A DNA stretch of 64,000 bases from Patescibacteria group bacterium. Lineage in GTDB: Bacteria; Patescibacteriota; Patescibacteriia; JACRDY01. Position 1 is the first letter of the stretch. Every line of letters begins with the position of its first letter. A program made the position numbers and the translations under genes. The notes beneath the pieces are model-generated. The model was not told where the DNA came from and ran no database searches. It worked only from the letters and a program-made list of their open reading frames with translations. The stretch spans positions 6,052 through 70,051 of the forward strand of contig JBAZFH010000001.1 in assembly GCA_041653535.1 (NCBI GenBank), written 5' to 3'. Positions 827 to 35,029 of this stretch are shown here, one piece after another.

Positions 827-842
827 TAAATAACAAAAAACT

Positions 843-14496: not shown

Positions 14497-14866
14497 GTAG
14501 GAGCTAAAAATAAAGCTTGTCCACGATTTTAAATATATGCGTAAAAATAACCTAATCAATAACGTTCTAGGCGGCTAGCAAGGAAATTTTTGTGCTATAT
14601 GGGACCGCTTAGAAGGCGGTTTTTTTAGTCAGCAGTAGAAAGCGAGTATTTTAACCTTTAGTGACTAAATGAAAATGACTCAGAGTCGTTTGGTCAGTGA
14701 AGGCTAAAGAGAAACGGAAAAACCGAACTTTAACAATTGAATCGAGGAATAATATTCCAACGTCAAAATGAAAATATAATTTTCGTCAAATTACGAAGAA
14801 GTAATATTAGAGAGTCTAATTAAAAAAATACATACTAAGCAAGGATTGTGTTTTCACAATTCTTGT

Positions 14867-18098
<3,232 letters not shown>

Positions 18099-18169
18099 AA
18101 TTATAAGAACATAAATTCAGATTATTATATTTAAATTTTGTACGTTACCATAGAAAAATGGTGATATTG

Positions 18170-18280
18170 TCCTGGTGCTTCCAGCAAGAGGGCCACACCT
18201 GTTTCCATTCCGAACACAGAAGTTAAGCCTCTTAGCGCCGATGATACTTAATAAGGGAAAGTAGGTCAGCGCCGGGACAA
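18170..18280 (+). rRNA. rrf: 5S ribosomal RNA
   Basis: CCTGGTGcttccagcaagagggccacacctgtttccattccgaacacagaagttaagc... matches bacterial 5S. Flanking processing stem ggtgatattgtcc/ggacaatgtcacc. Confidence 0.85.
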
Positions 18281-20136: not shown

Positions 20137-20239
20137 TCAACAAAAACATCCGGTTTTTTCCGGGTGTTTTTCTTTTTGGCAAAAGAGGTGTTTTAGCCTA
20201 TAATATAGCTACGTTAAGTGTCTTTAATATTGATTTTTT

Positions 20240-22531
20240 ATGTATCATTTTAAAACTATTCAAGACATCGACATTTCTTACAAAAAAGTTTTACTCCGTG
20301 TAGCGCTCGATATCCCGCTGCGGCACGGCAAAGTAGCCGAAGATTATCGCATTAGACAGATACTGCCAACGCTTGCCTATTTGCTCAAAAAAAATTGTAG
20401 CGCGGTGATTGTTACTTGGCTCGGTCGACCTGATGGCAAAGTGATGGAAGAATATCGGCTCGACCCGGTAGCAAAACGTTTGTCGCAGCTGATCCGTCGA
20501 CCTGTAAAAAAAGTAAATGATTGTGTCGGTCCGGAATCGCAAAAAGCGGTTTTTGATTTGGAACCAGGAGAAATATTGATGTTAGAAAATACTCGTTTTC
20601 ATCCTGAGGAAATGAGCGCCGATCCTGATTTTACTCGTCGGCTAGCCGATGGTTTTGATATTGAAGTGTTTGACGGCTTTGCTCAAAGTCACCGCGTTCA
20701 TGCATCGACTACCGGATTACTCGATTATTTGCCGACGGTTTCCGGGTTTTTATTGCAAAAAGAAATGGACGCACTGGGTGGAGTCTTGCATCAGCCATCT
20801 CGTCCATTGACTTTGATCATTGGCGGTGCCAAAGTTTCCGACAAAATCGGCCTGACGGCTAATTTGATTTCCAAAGCCGACAAGGTTTTGATTGGCGGAG
20901 TTTGTGCTAGCGTTTTTATCAAAGCTCGCGGTCAAGATGTGGGGCAGTCTTATCTAGCCGATGTTTTCGTGAATCAAGCCAAAAAAGGTGGTAAAAAAGA
21001 TTATTTTGCTATCGCCAAATTTTTGCTCAAAAAATATCCAAACAAAATAATGTTGCCACTCGACATGATTGCTGCCAGTGATAAAAAGGGGACGAAAACC
21101 AAGGTGGTTGATTTGGTTACCGATGACATTCCCAAGGGTTGGTCGTTTTTTGATATCGGTCCGGAAACGGTAAAAATGTTTGCCAAACAAATCAATCGCA
21201 GCAAAACCGTACTCTGGAACGGCCCGATGGGAATGTATGAAAATAAGAAATTTGAAACCGGTACTGCTAGTTTGGTTAAAGCCGTAGCTGGTAGCGACGC
21301 TGTTTCTATCGGTGGCGGTGGCGACACTGAAGAGTTGATCGGCAAATACGGTCTCGCTGGCAAGTTTTCTCATGTTTCTACCGGTGGCGGAGCGATGTTG
21401 GAATTTTTATCCGGTAAAAAACTGCCGGTACTCGAAGCAATGGTAAAAAATCAGCACAATATCAGGCTTTGGCGACTCGGACCAAAACCGGTTGTTGCTT
21501 TTACCAAGGAAAACAATCCGTATTTTCGTTATCCTTTCCATAACCTCAAAGAAATTCTTGGCCCGGCGCAAAGAAATAAATTTGGCGTGCCGGCTTGTAA
21601 CATTCGTTCCAAATATATTTTGGACGCTGTACTGCAAGCGGCTTTTGAAGAGCGTTCTCCGGTAATACTCGAGATAGCCGAGTCGGAGATGGGATATTGC
21701 AATATTCCTCCCGAGCGGATGATCGATCTGGTTTTGGAGCGACTGCCAAAATTGGAAAAAAAGTTTGGCTACCGCGTTCCTGTTTGTCTGCATGCCGATC
21801 ATATGCAAAAAGATTTACTCCTAGCAGAAAGAGCGATGAAAGCCGGATTTTCCTCGGCGCTGATTGATCAGTCAGCTTATCCGCTGGACTACAATATTTC
21901 AGTGGTCAGATCTTTTGTCCAAAAAGCGCACCCGCTCGGTATTACGATTGAAGGTGAAATCGGTCAGATCGGTCAAGGAATGTCTGGCAAAGGTCAATTG
22001 GTTGGTAAAGATGTTCTAACGCATGCGCCGTCGGTGCATGAAGCGGTTGAATTTATTTCCCAGACGGGAGTCGATGCTTTTGCCGGATTTTTTGGCAACT
22101 ATCACGGTAAGTACGAAAAAGAGGCAACTATCGTTTGGCCGCGGATCAAGCAAATTGATAAACAGATCAAAAAAAGAGTTTGGACTGTGCCGATAGTTTT
22201 ACATGGTACCAGTTATCTGCGTACCAAAGACTTTGATCATATCAAGGTGTATCACCAGGCAATCAAATGCGGTATGCACAAGTTTAATTATGGAACGATG
22301 CTTTCTGATATTTTTAAAGACTATTTGCCGCAAAAGTTGGTAGACAAGATGGACAATTTTGCCGAGGGCGGCGAAGAAAATTGGAAAAAAGGACTGGGAC
22401 ATTATGAAAAAGAAATCGATGCGCTAGATCCAGCGGTACTAAAAAAAGCCGTAGATGGTATCAAAAAGCATGTCAAAGAGATGATGAAAAAGGCGTGGTA
22501 TTGTTCGGGAAAGGTGAAGTTATACAAATAG
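20240..22531 (+). CDS. pgk: fusion protein: phosphoglycerate kinase (N-terminal, about 400 aa) + class II fructose-bisphosphate aldolase (C-terminal, about 360 aa)
   Basis: N-terminal Pgk motifs (KKVLLRVALDIPL ... STGGGAML). C-terminal class II FBA motifs (LHADH, ALIDQS, EGEIG, GFFGNYHG, LHGTS). Single uninterrupted 763-aa ORF. Confidence 0.8.
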   Translation: MYHFKTIQDIDISYKKVLLRVALDIPLRHGKVAEDYRIRQILPTLAYLLKKNCSAVIVTWLGRPDGKVMEEYRLDPVAKRLSQLIRRPVKKVNDCVGPESQKAVFDLEPGEILMLENTRFHPEEMSADPDFTRRLADGFDIEVFDGFAQSHRVHASTTGLLDYLPTVSGFLLQKEMDALGGVLHQPSRPLTLIIGGAKVSDKIGLTANLISKADKVLIGGVCASVFIKARGQDVGQSYLADVFVNQAKKGGKKDYFAIAKFLLKKYPNKIMLPLDMIAASDKKGTKTKVVDLVTDDIPKGWSFFDIGPETVKMFAKQINRSKTVLWNGPMGMYENKKFETGTASLVKAVAGSDAVSIGGGGDTEELIGKYGLAGKFSHVSTGGGAMLEFLSGKKLPVLEAMVKNQHNIRLWRLGPKPVVAFTKENNPYFRYPFHNLKEILGPAQRNKFGVPACNIRSKYILDAVLQAAFEERSPVILEIAESEMGYCNIPPERMIDLVLERLPKLEKKFGYRVPVCLHADHMQKDLLLAERAMKAGFSSALIDQSAYPLDYNISVVRSFVQKAHPLGITIEGEIGQIGQGMSGKGQLVGKDVLTHAPSVHEAVEFISQTGVDAFAGFFGNYHGKYEKEATIVWPRIKQIDKQIKKRVWTVPIVLHGTSYLRTKDFDHIKVYHQAIKCGMHKFNYGTMLSDIFKDYLPQKLVDKMDNFAEGGEENWKKGLGHYEKEIDALDPAVLKKAVDGIKKHVKEMMKKAWYCSGKVKLYK

Positions 22532-22814
22532 AGTTAGTATATAGTATGTAGTATATAGGGGGGGCGAGAGCCCTCCTTTTTGTGTCCATAGCTTGGCTTA
22601 TAATAGCACAAAAATTGTTTAATTTTAGGCAAATTATAGGTTAAATGATTTACAAGAATAGCGTTTTATGCTATGATTACATATTAATTTACAGGAGGTC
22701 ATTTACAATACAATTAACCAAAAATTTTTTGAGATGGGCGTTTTGGATACTATTTTTAGTATTTAGAACGCTCGTCTCAATTCCGGGACGGCATCTATGG
22801 AAAGGAGGGCGATC

Positions 22815-23591
22815 ATGGCTCAGCCAATGACGTCCGAACAGGAAAGGCAGATCAAGAGGTTCTTCGAAGATGCTCTCATCGGTCTCGGATTGACGAAGGA
22901 CCAAGCGCAAACCCTGATTACTTCCGGCGGAGAGTTCCAGCAAGAAGTGAAGGATCTGATGCTGGCTTTCGTCACCGGAAAGCAGGTGTACAAGTTGGCC
23001 CGCGCCATTCTCGGGAACGATTTCATCACCCCCGAAGAGGTGGCCAAGACCCGCGGCATCACCTACACCGAAGAACAGCTCCGTCAATTCAGCAACACCC
23101 TTCCCAAGGTCGAAGTGCTCCAGTGGCTCCGCGAACACGGCTACATGCTGGTTCCCGGACCGGCCAACCCCATCGCGTTACTCGACATTCGCGTCATGAA
23201 CGCCACTTACTTCTACAGCAAGGAAGGCGGTTGGTACGCGAATGACAGCGAGAAGTTCTCGCGCGATGACAAGGCGGCGGTCAAATGGCTCGCTGTCCGC
23301 AAGGACATCGTACCCGACTCCACCAGCAAAACCTGGGAAGAGCAAACGGTGCTTCTGTCGTCCGACGAGTACGTCCCGAACGCCGGTGAATTCGCCTGGG
23401 CCATCACCACGTACTACGCCGTTCGTGGCATCTACCTGTTCCCGGGTCTCTACGCCCGCACCTCTTCCGTGGGCTCTGACGGCGGTCGCGTCGATCTGGG
23501 CGATTTCGGCTCGAGCGGCCTGCGCGTCGACTACTATTTCGACGACAATCGCTCTGGCGATCTCGGCGTCGCTTCGGCCCGGAAGTTGTAG
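22815..23591 (+). CDS. hypothetical protein encoded in a high-GC (about 60%) island
   Basis: RBS AAGGAGG + 7 nt + ATG at 22815. Strongly GC3-biased codons unlike neighbours. Many spurious overlapping ORFs on both strands, typical of high GC. Terminator hairpin ggctcaacttcggttgagcc at about 23673-23702. Confidence 0.5.
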   Translation: MAQPMTSEQERQIKRFFEDALIGLGLTKDQAQTLITSGGEFQQEVKDLMLAFVTGKQVYKLARAILGNDFITPEEVAKTRGITYTEEQLRQFSNTLPKVEVLQWLREHGYMLVPGPANPIALLDIRVMNATYFYSKEGGWYANDSEKFSRDDKAAVKWLAVRKDIVPDSTSKTWEEQTVLLSSDEYVPNAGEFAWAITTYYAVRGIYLFPGLYARTSSVGSDGGRVDLGDFGSSGLRVDYYFDDNRSGDLGVASARKL

Positions 23592-23774
23592 GACTTCGGT
23601 TCTCGGCTTCTTGTCCCTTTTGGATTTTTGGTCTTCCGCCACGCAGTGGCGGTCGCGATAAAATCGCAATCACGGCTCAACTTCGGTTGAGCCTTTTCTT
23701 TTTTGATAAATTTTTAAAGGTAAGATGTGGCGGAATTTTTTTATTTCCGAGGATATGTTAAACTACTAAACACT

Positions 23775-25049
23775 ATGCAATATATCGCCGATCTACATAT
23801 TCACTCCAAATATTCTCGAGCCTGCAGCCCGCAGCTGACGCTGGAAAATATCAGCAAGTACTGCGCCATCAAAGGCGTTGACGTGGTAGCAACAGGGGAC
23901 TTTACCCACCCGATTTGGTTTAAAGAAATAGAAACTAAACTGGTCGAAGACGGGAGTGGAATCTATAAACTGAGAAATGCCGATGACAAAACGCGTTTTG
24001 TTTTGAGTACGGAGATTAGCTGTATTTATTCCAAGAGTGTTCCAGGCCAAAAAGAAGGATCAAAAAAAGTTCGTCGGCTGCATATTGTTGTTTTGGCGCC
24101 GGATATTGATACGGTAAGAAAGATAAATGAGACTCTTGGTAAAATCGGCAACCTGCGTTCCGATGGTCGGCCGATACTTGGCCTAGACGCCAAGCGACTA
24201 GCGCAAATAGTTTTTGATATCTCACCTCGCTGTATGGTAATCCCGGCGCACGCCTGGACACCGTGGTTTGCGGTATTTGGTAGCAAGTCCGGATTTGATT
24301 CGCTGCAAGAATGTTTTGAAGAGTACACGGATAAAATTTATGCGATTGAAACAGGACTATCTTCCGACCCGCCAATGAACTGGCGACTGTCAGCTCTTGA
24401 TAATGTCGCTCTGATTTCGAACTCCGACGCACATTCACTACCTAATATCGGCCGCGAAGCTAACGTGTTTGATTTGCCGGAACTAACTTACGACCAGATT
24501 TGCGATGCGATAAAAGATAAAGATAAAAAAAGATTTCTTTATACCATAGAGTTTTACCCCGAAGAGGGGATGTATCACTTTGACGGTCATCGGGATTGTG
24601 CCGTTTGTTTACCGCCAAGCGAGACTAGAAAACAAAAAGGTGTTTGTCCAAAGTGCAAAAAATATTTAACTGTGGGGGTGTTAAGTCGCATCGAAGAGTT
24701 GGCTGATCGACCGGAAGGGTTTATGCCGCCAGAGGCGATACCTTACAAAAGCTTGGTAGAACTAGACAAAATTATTGCCGAAAGTTTAAACATCAAATCT
24801 CGTCAGTCAAAAGGCGTACAGAGTGAATACGATAATTTGGTGAAAAAGGGGAAAAACGAAATGAATGTTTTATTAAACCTTGATTATAAGGAACTAGAAA
24901 AAATTACATCTTCAAAAATAGTTGAAGGCATCCGCCGTGTTCGTGAGGGAAAACTGATTATCCGCCCCGGATTTGACGGACAGTACGGAAAAATAGAAAT
25001 TTTTTCTCCGGCAGAGCGCGAAGAAAGTTTTCAGAAAAAACTACTTTAG
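23775..25049 (+). CDS. Endonuclease Q (EndoQ)-like PHP-domain nuclease with C-terminal Cys4 zinc finger
   Basis: N-terminal ADLHIHSKYSRA ... VVATGDFTHPIW (PHP metal site). C-terminal CAVCLPP ... CPKCKK zinc ribbon. The roughly 420-aa length matches archaeal/Bacillus EndoQ. Confidence 0.6.
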   Translation: MQYIADLHIHSKYSRACSPQLTLENISKYCAIKGVDVVATGDFTHPIWFKEIETKLVEDGSGIYKLRNADDKTRFVLSTEISCIYSKSVPGQKEGSKKVRRLHIVVLAPDIDTVRKINETLGKIGNLRSDGRPILGLDAKRLAQIVFDISPRCMVIPAHAWTPWFAVFGSKSGFDSLQECFEEYTDKIYAIETGLSSDPPMNWRLSALDNVALISNSDAHSLPNIGREANVFDLPELTYDQICDAIKDKDKKRFLYTIEFYPEEGMYHFDGHRDCAVCLPPSETRKQKGVCPKCKKYLTVGVLSRIEELADRPEGFMPPEAIPYKSLVELDKIIAESLNIKSRQSKGVQSEYDNLVKKGKNEMNVLLNLDYKELEKITSSKIVEGIRRVREGKLIIRPGFDGQYGKIEIFSPAEREESFQKKLL

Positions 25050-25119
25050 ATAAATAATTCTTGATCAAAAAAACCCACTGTAACTACAATGGATTTTTTT
25101 GTTTGAGATAAAGAGATAC

Positions 25120-25224
25120 TTATCTCTTTTTAGCCTTTTTAGCCTTCTTTGCCTTTTTAGCCTTCTTTGCTGGCTTTTTGGCTTTTTTTACGGCTTTTTT
25201 GGCTGCTTTTTTCTTTTTAGCCAT
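25120..25224 (-). CDS. candidate 34-aa Lys/Ala-rich histone H1/Hc1-like basic peptide
   Basis: Minus-strand translation is MAKKKKAAKKAVKKAKKPAKKAKKAKKAKKAKKR. No obvious SD; below the 60-aa ORF cutoff so absent from the track. Confidence 0.35.
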   Translation of the reverse strand: MAKKKKAAKKAVKKAKKPAKKAKKAKKAKKAKKR

Positions 25225-25506
25225 AGTTTTTGTTTTTGAGAGAATAGTTTTAAAATTTTTTCTCTCTTACAAATTATTTTTAAAAATAACTTGTGAGAAG
25301 TTTTTTTGCTAAAAAAGCAAAAATATTTCTCTACGACTATAATTATAGCATTTTTTTGCCACCTTAACAATAATTCAGTTAAATAAAACTGTGGATAACT
25401 TTATTTTTTTAAAGAAAAATTTTTTTTAAAAGTTTTTATTTTGAAAAATAATAAATTTTTTTATTATTTTTTTTATACAAATAAAAAATGATTCCCGAGG
25501 GGGGAA

Positions 25507-25905
25507 TCATTTGATGATGATTTCAAGTGTTGGATCGATTTTGGAGCAGGCTTCGGCCACGAGTCGGCGGTGACAATGTTCCGGCGTGTCCTCGATGCAC
25601 ATAATAGTGACATCGCCGGCACGCGCCATGCGAATTAGGTGCTCGAGCCACATTTGGGTTATCGGGCGCGCCAGGTGTTCGTCGAACCTTGCGGAAAATT
25701 CCGACCAGGTCATCCCATTTTTGTAATAGGCGCCGATCAGTTTTGGTGGGGGAGCTAATTCCTTCATTGTTCGATTAAAGAGGTCTTCGGTAATACGCGG
25801 GTCAGGGGTGGTGCCGTCGGATAAGGTGTGCCGACTCATGATGGAGATGCGCAGACCGTCGTTTTGCTCTTTTGGTGCTAGAATTGATTTGGTTTTGAGG
25901 GGCAA
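25507..25905 (-). CDS. DUF488 family protein
   Basis: N-terminal KxKxI..P...DGxRI.I.R and C-terminal MCIEDTPEHCHRR motifs typical of DUF488. TTG start with GGAGA RBS. Confidence 0.55.
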   Translation of the reverse strand: MPLKTKSILAPKEQNDGLRISIMSRHTLSDGTTPDPRITEDLFNRTMKELAPPPKLIGAYYKNGMTWSEFSARFDEHLARPITQMWLEHLIRMARAGDVTIMCIEDTPEHCHRRLVAEACSKIDPTLEIIIK

Positions 25906-26104
25906 TGGGTTATCTCCTTTTTGAAAATTGGTTTTGATGGTCGTCCTAGATTACTGCAATTCGGCAGAAAAAGCAATATCCACAGCCTGATTGACAGCTG
26001 GCTGGTTATGCTTTATAATAATTAGTCCTTTAACAATCTATAAACGATCACGTTGTGTTCCTACTGTATTATAAATAGCCATAGGCTATGGAAAGGAGAG
26101 CGCA

Positions 26105-26425
26105 ATGTCTCTGATTTGTATTGAGAATGGAAGGGATGTCATTTTTGGCGAGACGTTGATGGCTGCGACCCGGCCGGGCGGAAAAATATTTTCGGCTCTG
26201 AGTCCGGAAGTGATCGATTCGATTCCCGAGACGGAACGTAAATATCAGCCGTCGCAACCGGGAGAAGGTGGTGTTCACATCCACCTGGCGACATCGGATA
26301 TAAACTGGAACGGCGCTTATACAGTCGTTGATTTCGCCTTGGGCGAGTTTTTTTTCTCGATTTCCGAGGAAACCGCCGTCAGGTATTTGCCCAACTTCGT
26401 TGGGCGGTTTCCGGCTACTGCCTAA
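26105..26425 (+). CDS. hypothetical protein
   Basis: RBS GGAAAGGAGAG; intrinsic terminator at 26436-26464. The overlapping antisense ORF 26069..26437 is judged spurious. Confidence 0.45.
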   Translation: MSLICIENGRDVIFGETLMAATRPGGKIFSALSPEVIDSIPETERKYQPSQPGEGGVHIHLATSDINWNGAYTVVDFALGEFFFSISEETAVRYLPNFVGRFPATA

Positions 26426-26476
26426 ACTCAACAACAAAACCCCGTCGAAAGATGGGGTTTTTGCTATCCGAAATTT

Positions 26477-26821
26477 TTATTTTAAAACATCCAACATTTC
26501 TAGTAATTCTTGTTTTATGTTATTAGGTGGAACAGTGTCTTGGCTCGGATACTGTTCTTTCAGTTCGTACAGTCTTTGTTTTAAATCTTCCAACCTTTTT
26601 ATGATAGCGGTATACTTTGCTATTCCAACTTCATTTTTTACCTCTTTGCTGCTTAAGTACGTTTCAATAATAAAAACACGGGTGCCAAAACACGCCATCC
26701 AGGAATTACTAGTCCTAGCAAATTCTTCCTCGATTTTAGTTGATGAGTTCATGATCGCATCTTGCGCTTCCTGGAGGCTGGTTTTGGTCTGTTCACTAGA
26801 TGGACTTGGTTCTTTTATCAT
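26477..26821 (-). CDS. hypothetical coiled-coil protein
   Basis: 114-aa ORF. The opposite-strand ORF 26328..26861 is low-complexity and likely spurious. Confidence 0.35.
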   Translation of the reverse strand: MIKEPSPSSEQTKTSLQEAQDAIMNSSTKIEEEFARTSNSWMACFGTRVFIIETYLSSKEVKNEVGIAKYTAIIKRLEDLKQRLYELKEQYPSQDTVPPNNIKQELLEMLDVLK

Positions 26822-26917
26822 ACGAATTTTTATAAGTGGCTGCGTTCTTAGCTTAAATTAAATAATAAATTAAGTCAATTTGAAATAAAAGAAGGGACTA
26901 CGTTGTCCCTTCAAGGT

Positions 26918-27337
26918 TTAAGAATTGATAATCCTTTCCGCCAGTATACAGGCGTGGAGAAAGCCTTTTTCGTTGTAGCCGGTGTAAGCTAGAGGAACGC
27001 CGTTGGGCATGGACGACAGATTAAATGTCGCATCCTCAATCAAGGACTGACCGGGATTTTTGGTGAAACGAACTCCAAAAATTGGGATACTCCTTTCTTT
27101 TAGATAACCGGCGATAACACCCGGTAGTCCAGTCGCTGTTGCTGCGCCTCCAATAATCACTTTGAGATTTTTGTTTTTAAGCGACTCGATGATTTTTGCG
27201 TTGGTTTTTTGAGGTTCTCTGTGGGTTGAGCTTACGATGACTTCATGTTTTACGCTATGTTGGTTGAGATACTCCAGTCCATCATGTAAAAAATGTTCGT
27301 CACTTGAACTTCCGATCATGATAATCAAATGAACCAT
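26918..27337 (-). CDS. PurE-like (AIR carboxylase fold) protein
   Basis: IMIGSSSDEHF ... SSTHREP ... IIGGAATATGLPGVIAG ... PIFGV match PurE/LarB-type fold motifs. Confidence 0.55.
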   Translation of the reverse strand: MVHLIIMIGSSSDEHFLHDGLEYLNQHSVKHEVIVSSTHREPQKTNAKIIESLKNKNLKVIIGGAATATGLPGVIAGYLKERSIPIFGVRFTKNPGQSLIEDATFNLSSMPNGVPLAYTGYNEKGFLHACILAERIINS

Positions 27338-27407
27338 CTTGTCCTCCTGTGTATTTTTTGTTACTTCTAGAGTGGTATTTCAGCTAATTTTTTGGACGAA
27401 AAAATTT

Positions 27408-28733
27408 TTAATAACGCAGGGAATCTTCGGCCATTTTCGTTATAGTTTCACCTTCAAAGTTGTAAAGCTTTACTTGAGTCTTTGAAAACGGATTAATACT
27501 TTGTGGGGTTATAACAACGAAATTCATGGTTGTTAGATCGGGATTGTGATCGATCCAGGTGCCGGAGTTTGCATAGATTGATTTTTTTCCATTGTGATTA
27601 TTAGACGAAATGATTTTCGCAACATGGGTATGTCCAAAAATAACAATTCTCTTATCAGAATCAGGGTTCATGAAATATTGTACTATTGCCTGATTATCCG
27701 TTTCTTCCGCGGAAGAAGCCTTGGCAATAGCTTGATCTACGGGAATATTGACGGCCACTTTGTTGATAGTTTGTCTTTGGTCCCAAGTATCCTGGATTCC
27801 CTTGAAGAGATTAACGTCCAGTTTTCCGCCGGCTGTTAGTTGATAGGGTAGCAGGTCGTTAACCGCATATGTTTTGGTGAACCCATCAACGTTTGTTACG
27901 ATAATTTTTTCGCTAAGTCTCTCTTTTATCGGCAGATAATTTATCGCCCATTCCCAAAGTTTCCAATAGGCAAACAACGAGTTTTGGCTTGCGTCACCAG
28001 AAATATTTGGTGTAACAACTGGCATGGTATCGCCCGGTTGTGGATTTTTTTGTATCACGTGAAGAGCAGCTATTCTGGTAAAAAAGTATCCCGGAGGCAT
28101 TATGGTCCCCGGTGCGACAGCTTGGTTGGAAATCGGATCTGGCGCGCAGAAAAAATTGTACCGATGACCGTGCTCAATAGCAATTTTCGGATAATCAGTC
28201 GGTGAATAAGTGCCCAAGCCTTGCTCTTTGTCTCGTACCTGATTTATTCCCGGGAGAATAAGGTCAATATTTTCCGCAGTTATTGTCAGATCATGGTTTC
28301 CGGGAACATAGGTGACCAAAATTTTTCCGGATTTGATTATGTCGTTAAAAGCATCAATCACGTCTTTGTTTGTTGCCGCAATACGCTGTACAAAATCACG
28401 TTGATCTTTTCCGGCATAAGTATCTATTGTTGCTGGCACAAACCATTCATCGAGCAGGTCTCCGGCTATAACTAACTCCTTGATGTTTGGTGATGCGCTG
28501 ATTTGTTTGAGTAGTTTTTGGAGAGAGGAGAGGTTTTTGTTGCACTCGGCATAAGCGATGTCGGCACCAAGATGAAGGTCGCTGAGAACGACTATCATAT
28601 TCCTTTTGTTTCCTCCGTTTGAAAATTGGTCTATTGGGTCAGTCGATTTTAATCTGCCGTACAATACAAAGGCAACTAAAAAGACTATGATAATGATGAT
28701 AACTCCACTTAAAATTTTTGCTGTTTTTTTCAT
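27408..28733 (-). CDS. calcineurin-like metallophosphoesterase with N-terminal TM anchor
   Basis: Motifs DLHLG, GDLLDEW, GNHD, GHRY and GHTH. Confidence 0.75.
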   Translation of the reverse strand: MKKTAKILSGVIIIIIVFLVAFVLYGRLKSTDPIDQFSNGGNKRNMIVVLSDLHLGADIAYAECNKNLSSLQKLLKQISASPNIKELVIAGDLLDEWFVPATIDTYAGKDQRDFVQRIAATNKDVIDAFNDIIKSGKILVTYVPGNHDLTITAENIDLILPGINQVRDKEQGLGTYSPTDYPKIAIEHGHRYNFFCAPDPISNQAVAPGTIMPPGYFFTRIAALHVIQKNPQPGDTMPVVTPNISGDASQNSLFAYWKLWEWAINYLPIKERLSEKIIVTNVDGFTKTYAVNDLLPYQLTAGGKLDVNLFKGIQDTWDQRQTINKVAVNIPVDQAIAKASSAEETDNQAIVQYFMNPDSDKRIVIFGHTHVAKIISSNNHNGKKSIYANSGTWIDHNPDLTTMNFVVITPQSINPFSKTQVKLYNFEGETITKMAEDSLRY

Positions 28734-28961
28734 AGTATAAAATTATTTATTTTGTCTGTTATGTTTAAAAATTTATTGTTGATAACGTTTTGGCGTAGGC
28801 GAAGTTCGTTTGAAGCAATTTGCCATAATCTTGTGACTGCCCACCGCAGCTTTAGTATAGGCGGGAGCATTGACAAACTATAACGTCAGGGATAAAAGAA
28901 GTTTTCGGAGCATAGCTAAAGAAAAATTTGGGTGTAGCGTAGCGCAACCAGATATGCCGTG

Positions 28962-29507
28962 TTAGACGATATTGCCGTGTGAATTTCGAAAAGGAAAAAT
29001 TGCGTCCTTGATATTGCGCTCAAAGAAATTAAGGTGCGCCGTTCCTGTAATAATTACAATATTACCACCTTCAATAATATTTGCCTCAACGTTTTTAAGC
29101 ATCTCATTCTCGCGCGCCCTCTCTTTATCTTGGTCAATTAGTTTATCTAGGCCATCAACATCTAGCAATTTTTCATTTTCGATTTTATTAAAGTTCTTCC
29201 ATGATAACTTTTTTATCAATTTTTTTTGTTTCTCAATCATCGCTTGATTATCCTCGGGCATAACGCCCTCCCGAAAAACATCTATTTTTGAATCGAAACC
29301 CGCTACGTTCACATTATTATTTTTAGCCCATTCAAACGCAAATATCATTTCGGGAGGGTATGAACTTAAATCTTTTTTAACAATATCATCGTTAGCTATC
29401 TCAACCAATAGTTGGTCAGGCTCAAAACTTTCAATAACCTCTTTAAGTTCATTGTTTGGCGTTATGCCAGCGTGTAAAGTGCCAATAACTATGATTTTTC
29501 TCGGCAT
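28962..29507 (-). CDS. hypothetical protein, possibly TraB/GumN-like
   Basis: Start at the internal ATG (MPRKIIVIGTLHAG...). Two GT(L/A)H-containing segments reminiscent of the TraB family. Weak call. Confidence 0.35.
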   Translation of the reverse strand: MPRKIIVIGTLHAGITPNNELKEVIESFEPDQLLVEIANDDIVKKDLSSYPPEMIFAFEWAKNNNVNVAGFDSKIDVFREGVMPEDNQAMIEKQKKLIKKLSWKNFNKIENEKLLDVDGLDKLIDQDKERARENEMLKNVEANIIEGGNIVIITGTAHLNFFERNIKDAIFPFRNSHGNIV

Positions 29508-29703
29508 AAAAAATTGATAAAAAAATAATTCACACGGCAATTTCACATAACTAGCTACTATCTGCAGTGTTTGGGTGATAAGTGCCGTTTTTGGTGTGTT
29601 GTGCGCGGAGTTTAGAAGGATTTAATCTTTACTAAAGTACTGTGGATAGTAGAATAAGATAAATTGATTTATCTTATCTAAATTTAGCAAATAACCAAAT
29701 TTT

Positions 29704-30525
29704 ATGCAAGATGTCAAGAATTATCTAGAGAGAACTAAAACAGAGCTAAGATTAAAAAATTATAGCTCAAAGACCGAGAAAAGTTATCTTCGTTGTTTGG
29801 CGGAATACTTGGCTTATCTTGGTACGGAAACGCCAAGCGTTAACACCGATGCGATCAAAAGATTTTTGCTGGAAAAACAGTCATCTGGCAAAGCGCCGCA
29901 AACGGTCAATTTTTATCTCAATGCGATTAACTTTTTTTATCGCGAAGTCTTGGCTCTGCCAGCCAGGGTAGAGATTAAATTTGCCAAGCGATCCAAAAAA
30001 TTGCCGGTGGTTTTGTCTCGCGAGGAAGTACAAAAAATTATTACCGCGCCGAAAAACTCGAAGCATCGTTGTCTTTTGGCATTGACTTATGGTTCGGGAC
30101 TGCGCGTCAGCGAAGTGGTTAGTCTAAAAATCGGTGATCTGGATTTTGATCGAATGCTTATTCATCTCAAAGACGCCAAGGGTAATAAAGATCGCTTGAC
30201 GCTTTTGCCGGAAAGTTTATTGCTAGATTTAAAAAACCTTATCGCGAGTCGAGAGGCGAGTGACTATCTTTTTTCCAGTGAACGCGGTGGAGCGCTGTCT
30301 AGTCGAACCGCTCAGGCGATTTTTTACCTGGCGTTAGAAAAATCAGGGGTTACCAAAGCGGTTACTTTTCATTCTTTACGGCACAGTTTTGCTACACATT
30401 TGCTGGAAAACGGAGTGGATATTCGTTATGTGCAGGAGTTGCTCGGTCATAACAGTATCAAGACTACTCAGATTTATACGCATATGACCAGCTTGGGACT
30501 AAAAAACATCAAAAGCCCTCTTTGA
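29704..30525 (+). CDS. tyrosine site-specific recombinase (XerC/XerD-like)
   Basis: Catalytic R...HxxR...Y region (GLRVSEVVSLKIGDL ... HSLRHSFATHLLENG ... LLGHNSIKTTQIYTH). Confidence 0.8.
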   Translation: MQDVKNYLERTKTELRLKNYSSKTEKSYLRCLAEYLAYLGTETPSVNTDAIKRFLLEKQSSGKAPQTVNFYLNAINFFYREVLALPARVEIKFAKRSKKLPVVLSREEVQKIITAPKNSKHRCLLALTYGSGLRVSEVVSLKIGDLDFDRMLIHLKDAKGNKDRLTLLPESLLLDLKNLIASREASDYLFSSERGGALSSRTAQAIFYLALEKSGVTKAVTFHSLRHSFATHLLENGVDIRYVQELLGHNSIKTTQIYTHMTSLGLKNIKSPL

Positions 30526-30579
30526 TATTCAGATCTTTTGCCGTCATTAAAATATTTTTTCCTCGTCTGACGATCGAGA

Positions 30580-31107
30580 TTATTGTTTATTTTTTGTATC
30601 CGGATATCTGATGGTTATAGTGAATGTTGATTCGTTGGCATCAATATTTTCCAGTCTGGATAAAAGGTCAAATACCGTATTTTCCGTAATATCTTCTTTT
30701 AACCTGATAATTAAAGCATAGTTAATACCGAGTTTTTTATACAAATCTTCCATTTGTTTGAATTTTTTTTGTTTGTTTATCACCACGACACTTTTACCAC
30801 TAGTCACGTCAACAGCGTATGTTTTTCCGTTAAATCTAAAAAGCAGATCGATGCCTAACAGTCGGTCTGTTAATGTTTCGTTTGACAGGTCGGACAAACT
30901 CAATCCTTCTTTTTGTAGTTTTTGTACGACTAATTCATATCTTTGTGGTAACTCTCGTCTGACATGTTCCAATATTTTTTCTCTACTTTCTTGTAAAGAC
31001 AAAACCTCCACTCCTAAGTCTTTCGCTATTTCAAATAAAACCCGCATTCTTTCCTCTGCCAGTTTGGATATTTCGTTAGTGAAATTTGGAACTATTTCTT
31101 TTTCCAT
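30580..31107 (-). CDS. hypothetical protein
   Basis: 175-aa ORF with no recognisable family. Confidence 0.5.
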   Translation of the reverse strand: MEKEIVPNFTNEISKLAEERMRVLFEIAKDLGVEVLSLQESREKILEHVRRELPQRYELVVQKLQKEGLSLSDLSNETLTDRLLGIDLLFRFNGKTYAVDVTSGKSVVVINKQKKFKQMEDLYKKLGINYALIIRLKEDITENTVFDLLSRLENIDANESTFTITIRYPDTKNKQ

Positions 31108-31263
31108 AAAATTATTTTGGTAATTCTATGTTAATTTGATAATATATCATATAACAAATCCTCTCTGAATTTAACAGATAAATTGAATTTAGGCAATTTC
31201 ATTGCAGTTGACTAAGATAAGTTCCATATAAAAAAACACTGTTTTTAAAAGTGTTTTTTTATA

Positions 31264-31336
31264 TGGACCCGACCGGGCTCGAACCGGTCACCCCCTGCTT
31301 GCAAAGCAGGTGCTCTACCAAATGAGCTACGGGCCC
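31264..31336 (-). tRNA. tRNA-Ala (anticodon UGC), CCA not encoded
   Basis: Reverse complement GGGCCCGTAGCTCATTTGGTAGAGC ... anticodon loop TTTGCAA ... GGTTCGAGCCC. Confidence 0.85.
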
Positions 31337-31580
31337 CCACACCAACCTTAAACCACTGGTAATTTGTCGAAAATAAAGTTTTTAACAAAATGACTTTTTT
31401 AGTCCTTTGAATATTGTTATCAAAGTTGGTCTGGGGGTACGCCTAAAACGGTAAAAAGTGCCTATATAATATAGGAGAAAGGTGAAATAGTCAACAGTTT
31501 AACAATATTTAATAGTTTTTTTAGAATTATTTTACCCTCGCCGCGTTAATATTTGGCTAGATAATAAATAGTCTAATTTT

Positions 31581-33815
31581 ATGAAAAAAATAGCACTTTT
31601 TGGGATTATTTGCAGTTTGTTGTTTTGGCAATTATTGCCAATTTTTACGTTAGCCGATGGTTGCTCGATAGTGATCATAGAGATCGGAGCCAGCGAAAAA
31701 ACCGATCACGAGTGGGTCAAGATTTTTAATCGTAGTAATGAAGACGTTGATTTAAATAATTGGAAATTTTATGAAGACAAGACTAATCACAAACTAACAT
31801 TGTTTCGCGGCGACAATTTTATAATCAATGCCGGACAATACGCCGTAATAGCACAAGCGGCGGAAAATTTTGTTAGTGACTATCCGGATTTTACCGGTGC
31901 GATACTAGACAGTTCGTGGGGTAGTCTGTCAGAACAAGGAGAAGAAATCGGATTAAAAGATTCTAGCGGAACAACGCAAGAATTATTTACTTATGTCGCT
32001 GTTAACGGTTTTATTTTAGAAAGAGTTGATCCGATGATTGATGATTATACGGCAAACAATTGGCGGACAAAAACAGCGACAACTAATCCGGGATCGTTCG
32101 ATCAAGAAGGTAATACCGATCCGGTTGTTCCTACTGACCCAAACGATGGGCAAAACGCTGTTTGTCAAAATTTAGATTTAAAAATTAATGAGTTTGTTTC
32201 CAGTCCGGCAGACGAGCAAGAGGAGTTTATCGAGTTGTATAATAATGGTGTTCAGGCAATTGATTTAACCAATTGGTCGGTAGAGGATGGATCAAAACGA
32301 GTGACGATGCTGACCGGAGAAGTAGAGTCGGGAGGTTTTTTCATTATAGATAAGCCAAAAGGCGTTCTCAATAACGATGGAGATTTGATCGTTTTGCGTT
32401 GCGCGCAAAAAATAATTGATCAAGTTGCCTACGGTGAGTGGAATGACAGCGATATTAGTAATAACATATTGGCTCCAGAGGATCCATATTCGGCAGCGCG
32501 TACGGTTGATGGTCAAGATAGTGACGTTGATAGTATTGATTGGCAAGTAACAACAAATATTACTCGCGGAGCGGCAAATATTATTATTACCCCACCATCA
32601 CCGCCGTCATCTGGAAGAACCGTCGTGGTAACAGGAGATGATGCTGATATGGAAAACGATGAGGCGGCTACAATCATGGAAAATAGTTTGGACGCACCGA
32701 TAGAAAAAATTATTATTAATGAAATTTTTCCAAACCCCGCCGGTATTGATCGCGAAAAAGAGTTTATCGAATTGAAAAATATTGACATCATTGACGTTGA
32801 TTTGGACGGCTGGATAGTGAGTAAAGGCGGGTTTGATTATCATATTAAAAAAGATGATTTTTTTAGCACCGTAATACCGGTTGGCGGACTGTTTGTTTTG
32901 CCGCGAAAAGTGACCAATATTGCCCTAAAAAATACCGGAAAAGAGGTTGTTTCTTTAGAAAATACCAGAAAAATGACGGTTGATAAGGCGGAATATTCTG
33001 CCAGAGGAATAGAGGAAGAATGGAGTTATTCTTTGTTTGCTAATGGTTGGCAGTGGACACTACAAATAACTCCGGAACAAGAAAATGTTTTGGAAAAAAT
33101 AAGTTTAGCACCGTTGGCGTCATTAGTTCTAATAAAAAATTCTCGACCCAAAACAGGAGAGAAAATAATTTTTGACGCAACCGATTCAACCGATCCGGAC
33201 GGAGACGCGCTAGACTATCGTTGGAATTTTGGCGATGAAAATTTTGGCAGTGGGGAAATGACCGAACATGTTTATGCGTCATCAGGAAAATACGAGATAG
33301 TTTTAACTGTTGATGACGGTCGCGGTAAGAGTGATATCCTGAAAAAGAAAATTACTATTTATCCGGCGCCGGTTGAAGAAAAAGAAGAAGTTGATGTCGA
33401 GATAGCTGGTAGCAGGTCCAGCGTTGTAGAAAAAGCGAGCGCTACAAATATTGGTAAGACGATGAAAACAAGCGGTGAGGTGATAGAAAAAAACGGACAA
33501 AAAATTTGGCTGGATGATAATGGTGATGAAAGTCTGGTCTATATCAGCAAAACTCTAGGAATCAAAATGTCCAGTTTTAGTATCGGTCAAAAGTTGGAAG
33601 TAACCGGCGTGGTCAAAAAATATCAAGATGAATATCGGATTTGTCCTCGTGATAAAAATGATATTATTTTTATTAACAATGAGCCGCAGATTCTGGGTGC
33701 GGAAACAACGAAACAGCGAGACGATTGGGTAAAATTGGCGCTGATCGGAGGAATGATTATCGTGGCGGTTGTTACCGCGATTATTATTAAGATAAAAAAT
33801 AAAATATCAAAATAA
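31581..33815 (+). CDS. cell-surface protein with three lamin-tail (LTD) domains, a PKD domain and C-terminal TM anchor
   Basis: Signal peptide. LTD-like segments (INEFVSSPADEQEEFIELYNNG..DLTNW; IINEIFPNPAGIDREKEFIELKN). PKD motif (DATDSTDPDGDALDYRWNFGD ... YEIVLTVDDGRG). Terminal hydrophobic helix. Confidence 0.7.
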   Translation: MKKIALFGIICSLLFWQLLPIFTLADGCSIVIIEIGASEKTDHEWVKIFNRSNEDVDLNNWKFYEDKTNHKLTLFRGDNFIINAGQYAVIAQAAENFVSDYPDFTGAILDSSWGSLSEQGEEIGLKDSSGTTQELFTYVAVNGFILERVDPMIDDYTANNWRTKTATTNPGSFDQEGNTDPVVPTDPNDGQNAVCQNLDLKINEFVSSPADEQEEFIELYNNGVQAIDLTNWSVEDGSKRVTMLTGEVESGGFFIIDKPKGVLNNDGDLIVLRCAQKIIDQVAYGEWNDSDISNNILAPEDPYSAARTVDGQDSDVDSIDWQVTTNITRGAANIIITPPSPPSSGRTVVVTGDDADMENDEAATIMENSLDAPIEKIIINEIFPNPAGIDREKEFIELKNIDIIDVDLDGWIVSKGGFDYHIKKDDFFSTVIPVGGLFVLPRKVTNIALKNTGKEVVSLENTRKMTVDKAEYSARGIEEEWSYSLFANGWQWTLQITPEQENVLEKISLAPLASLVLIKNSRPKTGEKIIFDATDSTDPDGDALDYRWNFGDENFGSGEMTEHVYASSGKYEIVLTVDDGRGKSDILKKKITIYPAPVEEKEEVDVEIAGSRSSVVEKASATNIGKTMKTSGEVIEKNGQKIWLDDNGDESLVYISKTLGIKMSSFSIGQKLEVTGVVKKYQDEYRICPRDKNDIIFINNEPQILGAETTKQRDDWVKLALIGGMIIVAVVTAIIIKIKNKISK

Positions 33816-33882
33816 AAAATATGATCATTTAAACTTTGAAACTTAAAATCAAAATATTATCGGTGTCAGTATTTAAATAATA

Positions 33883-34599
33883 ATGAAAAGCAAAGAATAT
33901 TTTTTAATTTTGAGTTGTATTCTTGTCTTTGACTTTCTTGCTGCCATACTGGATAATAGATCTATGGTCAAAAAGTTAGTTTTATTGGCAGTTTTAATAG
34001 TAGCGGTGTTTGCCGCCGGTTTTATTTTTATTTATTTTATTAATGATCAGCGTGAAGAAACAAGCCTTAATAAGCAATCGACTGATTATTATGATAGTTT
34101 AGCCGAGGGTTGTCCGGTTGATGAAAATCAGCAAGTTTGCTGCTTGCTTTCCGTGGGAGAGATGCGCCAGTCCGGATTTTTATTGGTGCCGCAAGAAGGC
34201 TGTCCGCAAGGACAGTGGGAAAAACAGTTGGATTGTGCCGGTAGCTACAAATGGTGTCGGGTTATGACAGAAAGTGATTTAGTTTGGCAGAAGGAAGAAA
34301 AAGAGCGTGAAGACGAACTGGGGATTTGTCGGTATGAAGACAGCGAGTATTTTATCGAAGCGATTTGTAATCAGCTGGTGGTGCGTTTATCTGGCGGAAT
34401 TTTGGATAGCCAAAAGGGAGAGATTGAAAAAACAATCAAAAAATATAACGGTCAGTATTTGCAGCGTTTGCTACAGGATACTTATTGGGTTGTTTTTATT
34501 TCTCAGCGCGATGATCTGCTCGCGTTAAAATCAGAATTGACCAGCAGAGATAACGTTAACGTTTTTTTTAACGTTATTTCCACTGTTTTAAAGAATTAA
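33883..34599 (+). CDS. hypothetical membrane-anchored Cys-rich protein
   Basis: N-terminal TM helices followed by a Cys-containing extracytoplasmic domain. Confidence 0.5.
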   Translation: MKSKEYFLILSCILVFDFLAAILDNRSMVKKLVLLAVLIVAVFAAGFIFIYFINDQREETSLNKQSTDYYDSLAEGCPVDENQQVCCLLSVGEMRQSGFLLVPQEGCPQGQWEKQLDCAGSYKWCRVMTESDLVWQKEEKEREDELGICRYEDSEYFIEAICNQLVVRLSGGILDSQKGEIEKTIKKYNGQYLQRLLQDTYWVVFISQRDDLLALKSELTSRDNVNVFFNVISTVLKN

Positions 34600-34685
34600 A
34601 AAGAAAAAAATAGACCTCTTTAACTTTTGTTTAAGAGGTCTTTTAAATTTGTTTTATTTCAAGTTCAGATTTTAGTTCTCGATAA

Positions 34686-34889
34686 TTAGTTGGCATTATT
34701 TTTTTCCTGTGTTTTTTCTTCGTAGAAAACGGTTAAATAGGTGCGCACGGCTTGCTTTCCAAAAGAGACGGGAATCGCAGCTGAGCTTTGGCTGGCTGTG
34801 ATAAGCTGAATGGAATTGATAAATTTGTTGAATTCTTTCAACTGTTCATCGGTTGGAGCGCCGTTAAAAACAAAAAACTTCGCTTTCAT
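34686..34889 (-). CDS. hypothetical small protein
   Basis: 67-aa ORF. Bidirectional hairpin terminator (agacctctttaacttttgtttaagaggtct) at about 34610-34645. Confidence 0.35.
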   Translation of the reverse strand: MKAKFFVFNGAPTDEQLKEFNKFINSIQLITASQSSAAIPVSFGKQAVRTYLTVFYEEKTQEKNNAN

Positions 34890-35029
34890 TTTTTTACCTC
34901 CTTTCTTGCGTTGTTTTGGTTTTTGTCACGGTCTGTTTTGATTGTATTATAATATAATCAGCCGGTCAAAAGCCGTTAAATTGATATTTATCTTTTATCG
35001 ATTTTTTGCTACAATATTTACATAGTTTT

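Follow-up and report, generated by a model that had tools for sequence, protein, structure and literature searches.

A phosphoglycerate kinase joined in frame to a class II aldolase in a small clade of Patescibacteria

A 64,000-nucleotide stretch of Patescibacteria DNA (contig JBAZFH010000001.1; hereafter the window) carries a single gene in which phosphoglycerate kinase (Pgk) is joined in frame to a class II aldolase (Table 1). According to the initial annotation, the reading frame runs without a stop from a complete Pgk into a class II aldolase domain, and the open reading frame list and two Pfam domains agree with this. A search for the fusion in related lineages, which had also been suggested, recovered it in 12 protein clusters from one Patescibacteria clade. 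The explanation that we favour, and consider probable as a whole, is that the gene encodes a bifunctional enzyme, that its aldolase acts on fructose-1,6-bisphosphate (FBP), that the fusion has a single ancestral origin and that its benefit lies in co-expression or assembly. The product would be an enzyme of ~84 kDa with an N-terminal Patescibacteria-type Pgk and a C-terminal zinc-dependent class II ketose-bisphosphate aldolase, each half presumably catalysing its own reaction independently.

The exact protein is deposited at NCBI as MFA5358219.1 (cluster P0001) and annotated just as 'phosphoglycerate kinase', as are all database copies of the fusion. Metabolic reconstructions of Patescibacteria that assign one function to each gene would consequently record the clade as lacking aldolase, an enzyme that is among those reported to be patchy across the CPR (PMC7304191). 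The upstream hairpin sets the fusion gene apart from its upstream neighbour, and the candidate promoter, recognized by its match to the consensus, is the best such match in the region. With a promoter-like site and terminator-like hairpins on both flanks, the gene thus looks monocistronic, a transcription unit of its own. GC content is even across the junction. No other glycolytic gene was found among the 49 open reading frames of at least 150 aa in the window, and the PFK and PfkB neighbours known from the fusion loci of relatives are absent from it.

Table 1. Features of the fusion gene and its flanks, in window coordinates.
Feature	Position	Strand	Description
Terminator-like hairpin closing the upstream gene (stop at 20136)	20142..20171	+	12-pair stem, then T-run
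Sigma-70-like promoter TTGGCA-17-TATAAT	20176..20204	+	36 bases upstream of ATG; 11/12 consensus matches
Fusion coding sequence	20240..22531	+	763 aa + stop codon, ATG start; single open reading frame, two Pfam domains
Phosphoglycerate kinase half, Patescibacteria type	20240..21442	+	aa 1-401; Pfam, PDB sequence matches, Foldseek
True junction VKNQHNIRLWRLG	21443..21481	+	aa 402-414; mean pairwise identity 0.27, only N404 well conserved
N-terminal extension of the aldolase subfamily, ..FTKENNPYFR..	21482..21541	+	aa 415-434; motif also N-terminal in stand-alone P0121-P0146
Class II (metal-dependent) aldolase TIM barrel	21542..22330	+	aa 435-697; D520-H521, E571/E573, H622, H655, K681/N683
Mobile catalytic loop	21965..22027	+	aa 576-596; canonical Glu missing; pLDDT <50 at aa 577-583
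C-terminal helical extension of the aldolase subfamily	22331..22528	+	aa 698-763; found in fused and stand-alone members
Terminator-like hairpin and T-run	22557..22578	+	26 bases past stop codon; 9-pair stem, 6 G-C pairs

The Pfam PGK profile (PF00162) matched aa 7-393 over all of its length (1-379 of 379) with 418.1 bits against a cut-off of 27 (E 4e-125), and the PDB sequence match was 1php (8e-106). An AF2 model of the full protein (pLDDT 85.2, pTM 0.80) showed the two-lobe PGK fold, with target TM-scores of 0.84-0.91 to PGK structures in Foldseek. Conserved Pgk residues include R37/R39, R63, R119, H151-R152, GGAK198..K202, N327, E334 and GGGD362. The phosphate-binding arginines of the basic patch, R63, R119 and R152, were invariant in the aligned fusions; the roles of their pig counterparts (R65, R122 and R170) have been described (PMC7729029). 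Equally invariant were the nucleotide-side and catalytic motifs G195-G196-A-K198...K202, N327-G-P-x-G331 and G359-G-G-D362 (GGAKVxDK, NGPxG and GGGD[ST]). The canonical 3-PG contacts (pig D23, N25 and H62) are not kept and are replaced by A, D and W/F: RVDFNVP has become RVALDIP (Asp to Ala, Asn to Asp) and SHLGRP has become TWLGRP (His to Trp). Fusion was rejected as the cause of these unusual residues, since they also occur in a large clade of Pgks that stand alone, P0046 and P0247 among them, and the deepest fused member, P0244, retains the His of the SHLGRP position in its Pgk half. Judged by this distribution, the altered contacts are the normal Pgk type of the whole Pgk lineage. A lineage in which three textbook 3-PG contacts are replaced merits kinetic study.

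The best 50 Foldseek matches of the full-length model were all PGK structures, and the aldolase half was therefore modelled alone (pLDDT 91.6, pTM 0.92). Its best 50 PDB matches were all class II FBP, TBP, SFP or YdjI aldolases, with target TM-scores of 0.71-0.90. Pfam F_bP_aldolase class II (PF01116) matched aa 435-752 (profile 2-271 of 277) with 196.5 bits against a cut-off of 25.5 (E 8e-58), and the PDB sequence match was the class II FBA 7ncc (1e-28). All of the motifs quoted in the initial annotation are present in the translation (LHADH, 517-521; ALIDQS, 540-545; EGEIG, 571-575; GFFGNYHG, 616-623; LHGTS, 654-658), and the barrel residues listed in Table 1 were invariant in every aligned fusion. 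The possibility raised there that the C-terminal domain is a non-aldolase TIM barrel fails, as every structural and sequence neighbour is an aldolase.

Within class II, the closest characterized group is set well apart from the aldolase half. Class IIb FBAs (Bacillus FbaA/FBAP 7ncc, Thermus 1rv8, Giardia 2isv, H. pylori 3c4u) have in common with it the TIM-barrel fold, with TM-scores of 0.74-0.90, the HxDH Asp-His dyad, the ExExG motif and two further zinc histidines. Identity to them is, however, just 23-28%, and the aldolase half has ~30 extra N-terminal residues, a ~27-residue helical insertion near the C-terminus, AESE for S-x-G in the beta2 loop, DQS for DGS and KFNY[AGS]T for KxNxDTD; the 'G[IT]ED' loop glutamate of class IIb is missing. 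All 20 NCBIfam aldolase models, including every curated equivalog, scored under their cut-offs, the generic 'ketose-bisphosphate aldolase' model doing best; the top scores were 161.1 against 215.6 (TIGR00167) and 156.4 against 343 (TIGR01859). Stand-alone long class II aldolases of Peregrinibacteria, Peribacteria, Gracilibacteria and related groups (P0121-P0147; L012-L039) belong to the same subfamily as the fused half. They share with it the N-terminal ENNP, AESE, KFNY and the C-terminal helices, at 38-50% identity over 94-96% of the aldolase half. In the models, aa 415-434 had high pLDDT without regular secondary structure, while the ~27 aa of the C-terminal extension that canonical class IIb aldolases lack were helical with high pLDDT. 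On these comparisons the aldolase half is a member of a divergent, long, lineage-specific subfamily.

Stand-alone aldolases start past the junction segment, aa 402-414, and P0244 lacks ~25 residues at the junction. What might be taken for a linker is thus mostly the N-terminal extension of the aldolase subfamily itself. We consider it very improbable that a separate Pgk (or aldolase) is also made from the gene, whether through a frameshift or through translation starting internally at the junction, as has been reported for Thermotoga pgk-tpi. The window does have an in-frame slippery heptamer, A_AAA_AAT, precisely at the junction (21445-21451), as do two of the four further fused loci for which the DNA of the junction was read; aa 401 is encoded by ATG, and Thermotoga makes Pgk as well as PGK-TIM (PMC7729029). 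The heptamer, however, simply codes for a conserved Lys-Asn and is missing from two of the five loci, and the -1 frame in the window continues for ~30 further codons before a stop. Met 401 is Leu in other members, and no pairing of a Shine-Dalgarno sequence with a start codon was conserved at the junction. A programmed frameshift or internal start was rejected on the ground that no conserved signal was found in the junction DNA of the five loci.

The 12 fusion clusters span 42-100% identity and come from independent NCBI, JGI, ENA and Logan assemblies that differ in sample, assembler and sequencing centre. Ten of them (P0002-P0011) are full-length fusions of 761-772 aa with 48-70% identity, and P0244 has 725 aa and 42% identity; the identical protein is on record at NCBI, JGI and Logan. 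The initial annotation had pointed to a stop codon lost between two adjacent genes as an artefact that might explain the open reading frame. An assembly or sequencing artefact of this kind, in which loss of a stop codon or an indel merges neighbouring genes, now has a vanishingly small probability. P0002-P0011 and P0244, from independent assemblies, all show the in-frame junction, which rules out chance or a single sequencing error. Nor are pgk and aldolase genes adjacent in stand-alone relatives: no pgk was found within 4 kb of any of the 30 most closely related stand-alone aldolase genes, which also leaves unsupported an origin of the fusion from neighbouring pgk and fba genes in close relatives.

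No other PGK-aldolase fusion family came up when 1.84 billion protein representatives were scanned exhaustively, and no report of such a fusion was found in the literature searched. This bears out the earlier view that the fusion is unusual; it is rare and old, and apparently without an earlier report, a novel pairing of known parts. The fused aldolase halves formed one clade in 200 of 200 bootstraps. Ten fused Pgk halves were monophyletic in 196 of 200, and that of P0244 grouped with them in six of 200 in a simple NJ tree, which we attribute to a long-branch effect; replacement of the domain may be an alternative. Independent fusion events were rejected for the aldolase half on the basis of its 200/200 monophyly and of common synteny, the order fusion, then PfkB, PFK and CofD/UDG, being common to P0003, P0006 and P0244. 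The two halves were conserved to about the same degree (mean pairwise identity 0.58 and 0.56), as against 0.27 for the 13-aa junction; the highest value of any segment, 0.60, was that of the barrel.

UvrA was used as a marker for the carriers. All UvrA matches of 75-82% identity whose contigs could be matched lay on fusion-bearing contigs; three further matches, of 74-82%, lay on contigs without a tie to the fusion. Beyond the carriers, UvrA identity fell to 69% and then to 64% or less in other ABY1-type groups. By this marker the carriers make up a single, closely knit lineage of Patescibacteria in the vicinity of Falkowbacteria. A single fusion event took place in the ancestor of this small clade, which has Falkowbacteria and further groups of ABY1 type as near relatives, and purifying selection on both halves has maintained the fusion thereafter.

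FBP is most probably the substrate of the aldolase half, because stand-alone members of the subfamily adjoin FBPase or PFK genes in 23 of 30 distinct loci. A class 1 FBPase gene lay at most 1.3 kb downstream in 15 of these loci, directly downstream in 14, and a PFK gene lay within ~3.6 kb in eight. FBPase and PFK are both FBP-specific. PFK was also found ~1.5-2 kb from the fusion in three fused lineages. Alternatively, the fusion could be real and its aldolase half act on another ketose phosphate, such as tagatose-1,6-bisphosphate, sedoheptulose-1,7-bisphosphate or sulfofructose phosphate, or on a broader range, and so not be the glycolytic aldolase. The failure of all NCBIfam FBA equivalogs to reach their cut-offs, with the generic model scoring best, is consistent with this. 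Sulfofructose-phosphate, tagatose-bisphosphate and YdjI aldolases are among the closest structures, with TM-scores like those of FBAs, and an unassignable sugar kinase of the PfkB family adjoins the fusion in three lineages. The substrate-side motif also differs, being KFNY[AGS]T where FbaA has KxNxDTD and the tagatose-bisphosphate aldolase GatY has KINVATE, although K681 and N683 are kept. At the Asp positions of the FbaA motif, the window has G and M, the subfamily [AGS] and x, and GatY A and E; the E. coli D288 position is thus A, G or S in the subfamily and A in GatY. The FBA models nevertheless scored above the tagatose models on the aldolase half (156-161 against 118-127 bits), and genes of a tagatose or sulfoquinovose pathway were seen at none of the loci. 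Together with the FBPase and PFK neighbours, these results make a substrate other than FBP unlikely.

The catalytic core of the aldolase is conserved. E. coli FbaA residues D109-H110, E174, H226, H264 and N286 correspond to D520-H521, E573, H622, H655 and N683, all of which are invariant, and the zinc-ligand histidines H521, H622 and H655 and the catalytic D520 were invariant both in 11 fusions and in the stand-alone relatives. The roles of these residues follow a published account (PMC5434028). In the mobile loop, the column of E. coli Glu182 is occupied by M581 in the window and by M, Q, V, L, G or S across the fusions, with no conserved counterpart, and in P0007 and P0010 the loop holds no acidic residue at all. 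The corresponding glutamate ('G[IT]ED' in class IIb) moves the DHAP proton in characterized class II aldolases. The stand-alone sister aldolases, which are unfused and have no pgk within 4 kb, keep a conserved loop Glu at +5 and the Asp of 'AL.D', whereas the fused clade has lost both.

This loss, specific to the fused clade, could mean that the aldolase half is catalytically crippled and retained mainly to oligomerize or regulate Pgk, for instance as a sensor that binds FBP or DHAP. Other organisms have multidomain PGKs in which the partner domain is 'dead' or regulatory (PMC7729029). In the published cases, however, it is the Pgk domain that is dead and not its partner. The three zinc histidines, the catalytic Asp, E573, K681 and N683 remain invariant down to 42% identity, which is hard to square with a purely structural domain, and the barrel is better conserved than any other segment. 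A crippled aldolase is, in our view, distinctly improbable. A more speculative form of the bifunctional enzyme, which we hold to be rather unlikely, is that the fused clade carries out class II aldolase chemistry without the loop glutamate, another residue transferring the proton, and that the fusion is mechanistically coupled or builds a glycolytic particle with GAPDH and TPI. The substitute may be the subfamily-specific E481/E483 of the 'AESE' loop, or a group from the tethered Pgk half or from a partner subunit. Were this so, the fusion would be more than a mere co-expression device. The remodelled periphery of the active site and the missing loop Glu in any case make the fused branch a compact test case for how the DHAP proton is moved.

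Aldolase produces DHAP and glyceraldehyde-3-phosphate, Pgk acts on 1,3-bisphosphoglycerate and 3-phosphoglycerate, and GAPDH (and TPI) stand between them. The two reactions therefore share no intermediate that could be passed on directly, and the metabolic channelling proposed in the initial annotation is unsupported. The contrast that it drew with Pgk-Tpi fusions was mistaken, the Pgk and Tpi steps being non-consecutive too (PMC7729029). A likely benefit of the Pgk-aldolase fusion would be that, in a very small genome, one promoter forces both enzymes to be expressed at a 1:1 ratio. A second would be the tethering of the normally monomeric Pgk to an aldolase oligomer, which, by analogy with Thermotoga PGK-TIM, may yield a multi-enzyme particle.

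The two genes are close neighbours in E. coli, where pgk lies directly upstream of the class II fbaA gene on the same strand (epd-pgk-fbaA), in the order of the domains in the fusion. Thus, pgk and class II fba are co-located in some bacteria. The E. coli genes are nevertheless separate, with a 214-bp spacer, FbaA is of class IIa, unlike the fused aldolase, and such adjacency was not found among the close relatives of the latter. The TPI-GAPDH fusion of stramenopiles is also a natural fusion of two glycolytic enzymes (PMC3527533). It differs in being eukaryotic and targeted to mitochondria, and in joining consecutive steps that share glyceraldehyde-3-phosphate.

The nearest parallel is PGK-TIM of Thermotoga maritima and T. 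neapolitana (the 'fus' gene), in which an N-terminal Pgk is likewise in frame with a second (beta/alpha)8-barrel enzyme of triose or hexose phosphates. PGK-TIM is a tetrameric bifunctional protein whose activities, like those of the Pgk-aldolase fusion, are non-consecutive (PMC7729029). PGK-TIM fusions were plentiful among the matches to the Pgk half. In the Patescibacteria fusion, a class II aldolase (PF01116) takes the place of TIM (PF00121): Pfam detected no TIM domain, and the NCBIfam PGK/TIM model PRK13962 matched in the PGK part only (434 against a cut-off of 883). The Pgk-aldolase fusion is confined to one small Patescibacteria clade, whereas PGK-TIM occurs in Thermotogae or Clostridia, and Thermotoga has a second, separately made Pgk, of which the Pgk-aldolase fusion gives no convincing sign. 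In PGK-TIM the oligomeric barrel partner makes the monomeric Pgk multimeric (PMC7729029); the models of the Pgk-aldolase fusion are of the monomer. Pgk-aldolase is the third type of natural glycolytic enzyme fusion, after PGK-TIM and TPI-GAPDH. As in PGK-TIM, non-consecutive steps are joined, which adds weight to the idea that fusions of this kind promote co-expression or assembly rather than channelling.

The 763-aa ORF, which starts with ATG, runs uninterrupted in the ORF listing of the window, and its translation contains all the aldolase motifs quoted in the initial annotation, in which it was read as a Pgk continuing without stop into a class II aldolase. Pfam, PDB matches and structural models confirmed this reading. 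Pfam placed a complete PGK domain at aa 7–393 (profile positions 1–379 of 379, 418 bits) and a class II fructose-bisphosphate aldolase domain at aa 435–752 (196.5 bits), and PDB sequence searches returned PGKs (best 8e-106) and class II aldolases (best 1e-28). The AF2 model of the whole protein was confident (pLDDT 85.2, pTM 0.80), and its N-terminal half superposed on PGK structures with TM 0.84–0.91. For the C-terminal half, modelled separately (pLDDT 91.6, pTM 0.92), the best 50 PDB matches were all class II metal-dependent aldolases (FBP, tagatose-bisphosphate, sulfofructose-phosphate and YdjI enzymes), which excludes a barrel-family member other than an aldolase.

Coordinates of the fusion gene, its deepest relative and other features
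Feature	Sequence	Position	Strand	Remark
Pgk–aldolase fusion	window	20240-22531	+	763 aa
Fusion P0244	L077 (GCA_964523165.1)	826-3003		deepest-branching fused member, 725 aa
Second enzyme fusion	window	1441-2493	+	350-aa ORF
23S rRNA	window	14866-18277 (with 5S)	+	match spans 3231 bases, model 2925 positions
5S rRNA	window	18171-18277	+	after 23S
Tyrosine recombinase	window	29704-30525		beside tRNA
tRNA	window	31264-31336	minus	
Large LTD + PKD domain protein	window	31581-33815	+	
Large LTD + PKD domain protein	L008	13886-16438		
Large LTD + PKD domain protein	L079	5209-7215		

When 5.8 billion clustered proteins were searched, an identical protein was found, recorded in NCBI (MFA5358219.1, on a 347-kb contig of 'Patescibacteria group bacterium'), JGI and Logan, along with 10 further clusters with both Pfam domains, nine of them full-length (761–772 aa, 48–70% identity) and one a 540-aa fragment (P0009). 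Since these two-domain proteins derive from differing samples and assemblers, an artefactual fusion is ruled out. GC content is even over the junction, and conservation in the fusion alignment runs end to end; mean pairwise identity is 0.58 in the Pgk half and 0.56 in the aldolase half, and only 0.27 in the 13-residue junction. HMMER, run exhaustively against 1.84 billion protein representatives, added one deeper fusion, P0244 (42% identity). No other PGK–aldolase fusion family was present among these representatives, the remaining long matches all being PGK–PGK tandems or PGK–TIM proteins; this is therefore the sole such family in that library. The tandem proteins P0245, P0246, P0275 and P0012 (795–1031 aa) carry two full PGK domains per chain.

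In neighbour-joining trees with 200 bootstrap replicates, 10 fused aldolase halves were monophyletic (200/200), with a small group of stand-alone aldolases as their sister (136/200), and 10 fused Pgk halves were likewise monophyletic (196/200). The long-branched Pgk half of P0244 fell outside the cluster of the others (6/200). Despite this, P0244 represents the same locus as the fusions P0003 and P0006, because all three have a common gene order: fusion, PfkB-family kinase, PFK on the opposite strand, then CofD and UDG. The P0244 junction is about 25 residues shorter and lacks the ENNPY.R segment. We conclude that the fusion has a single origin and belongs to a single clade. With the UvrA encoded in the window as lineage marker, five matches at 75–82% identity lay on contigs also bearing the fusion and three more (74–82%) on contigs not linked to one; identity then falls to 69%, and in Falkow-, Kerfeld-, Jackson- and Buchananbacteria it is no higher than 64%. 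NCBI labels one fused protein Candidatus Falkowbacteria, and locus L079, syntenic with the window, is a further close relative. Contigs L011 and L012/L013 bear the fusion or the stand-alone aldolases closest to it, and their MAG records name 'uncultured Gammaproteobacteria', 'Nitrospirae' and 'Nitrospinota'; judging by gene content and similarity, these names look like errors of binning or taxonomy.

Used alone as query, the aldolase half matched stand-alone proteins of 345–360 aa at 40–47% identity over 94–96% of its length, including a C-terminal helical extension lacking in canonical class IIb enzymes and the ENNPY.R motif of the supposed 'linker'. Because the stand-alone enzymes already include this motif, the true junction is only aa 402–414. 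In species-representative genomes, Peregrinibacteria, Peribacteria and Gracilibacteria account for most of the stand-alone genes, with more distant relatives in Bathyarchaeota and Aenigmarchaeota. Among 30 distinct loci with a stand-alone gene, 15 have a class 1 FBPase gene no more than 1.3 kb downstream, which in 14 is the immediate neighbour, and eight have a PFK within ~3.6 kb; PFK is also near the fusion in three fused lineages. This context is the main evidence for fructose-1,6-bisphosphate as the substrate of the subfamily. None of the NCBIfam aldolase models reaches its cut-off on the fused half. Alignment to E. coli FbaA, with residue roles from PMC5434028, showed the catalytic and metal residues to be invariant (D109/H110, E174, H226, H264 and N286 correspond to D520/H521, E573, H622, H655 and N683). 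The canonical KxNxDTD motif is replaced by KFNY[AGS]T in the subfamily. M581 takes the place of the mobile-loop glutamate (E. coli Glu182; 'G[IT]ED' in class IIb) in this alignment, and no conserved acidic counterpart was found in the aligned fusions, two of which lack acidic residues in the loop altogether, whereas the stand-alone sisters keep Glu and Asp there. This loop is the sole low-confidence segment of the C-terminal model, as expected for a mobile element.

The Pgk half retains intact phosphate-binding arginines as well as the nucleotide and catalytic motifs. Three contacts to 3-phosphoglycerate known from pig PGK, Asp23, Asn25 and His62 (PMC7729029), are replaced (RVALDIP versus RVDFNVP; TWLGRP versus SHLGRP), and there is a 13-residue insertion. 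The same features mark a clade of stand-alone Pgks (P0046, P0247, P0249–P0252, P0254–P0256 and P0258–P0260), one of them labelled Patescibacteria, with Asp23 changed to Ala/Pro/Ser, Asn25 to Asp and His62 to Trp/Phe/Tyr, and in most members the insertion after 'G.S'. These residues are thus not a product of the fusion, as the stand-alone clade has them and P0244 keeps the canonical His and lacks the insertion; they are a lineage trait. As PGK is reported to be near-universal in CPR (PMC7304191), the variant is presumably a working Pgk.

A promoter-like site (11/12 consensus matches) precedes the fusion gene, which has terminator-like hairpins on both sides. An in-frame slippery-type heptamer, A_AAA_AAT, lies exactly on the junction at 21445–21451. 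L008 has it too, L006 has it three codons further on, and L004 and L011 lack it; probably it is simply the codons for a conserved Lys-Asn. Neither a conserved signal for a second product nor a conserved internal ribosome-binding site at the junction was found in these five loci.

The 23S rRNA match exceeds its model, which implies ~300 inserted bases; small '23S_rRNA_IVP' protein genes are present in related loci. No 16S gene was found in the window, be it upstream of 23S or anywhere else. The order rRNA-DUF2333-fusion seems to recur in L008. In relatives, the fusion is followed 3' by PfkB-PFK-GlmS-acetyltransferase-CofD-MJ0043_C; the window instead holds unrelated ORFs at ~22600–34900 (an unassigned 264-aa ORF, PHP-like, metallophosphoesterase and TraB-like). 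GC is lower at 24–35 kb (35–43%) than at 18–23 kb (41–48%). Integration of an element here, or a rearrangement, may have displaced the block of sugar-phosphate genes. The LTD + PKD protein, likely on the cell surface, keeps its position upstream of 2-oxoacid:ferredoxin oxidoreductase and UvrA genes throughout the clade. The second enzyme fusion joins a dUTPase/dCTP-deaminase-like domain (aa 19–161) to a dCMP/cytidine deaminase zinc-binding domain (aa 219–321).

Public copies of the fusion are annotated as phosphoglycerate kinase only, a pitfall when the metabolism of these organisms is reconstructed, and no description of a PGK–aldolase fusion was found in the literature searched. The fused clade is also a natural case of a class II aldolase that lacks the canonical loop glutamate. 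Each half probably remains active on its own substrates. The products of aldolase are DHAP and glyceraldehyde-3-phosphate, Pgk acts on 1,3-bisphosphoglycerate and 3-phosphoglycerate, and TPI and GAPDH stand between the two steps; the metabolic channelling initially proposed therefore has no basis as direct transfer. By analogy with PGK–TIM, two benefits are likely: fixed 1:1 co-expression of Pgk and aldolase from one promoter, and tethering of Pgk to an aldolase oligomer. The E. coli genome has pgk immediately before fbaA on the same strand, as two separate genes, so the pair can be co-located; no stand-alone aldolase relative, however, has pgk within 4 kb. Natural fusions of glycolytic enzymes are a known kind of protein, of which this is a new combination and a second example of Pgk joined to a non-adjacent step. 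Its nearest precedent, PGK–TIM, likewise joins non-consecutive steps; it forms a tetramer via the barrel partner, and its benefit has been termed enigmatic in a review of PGK.
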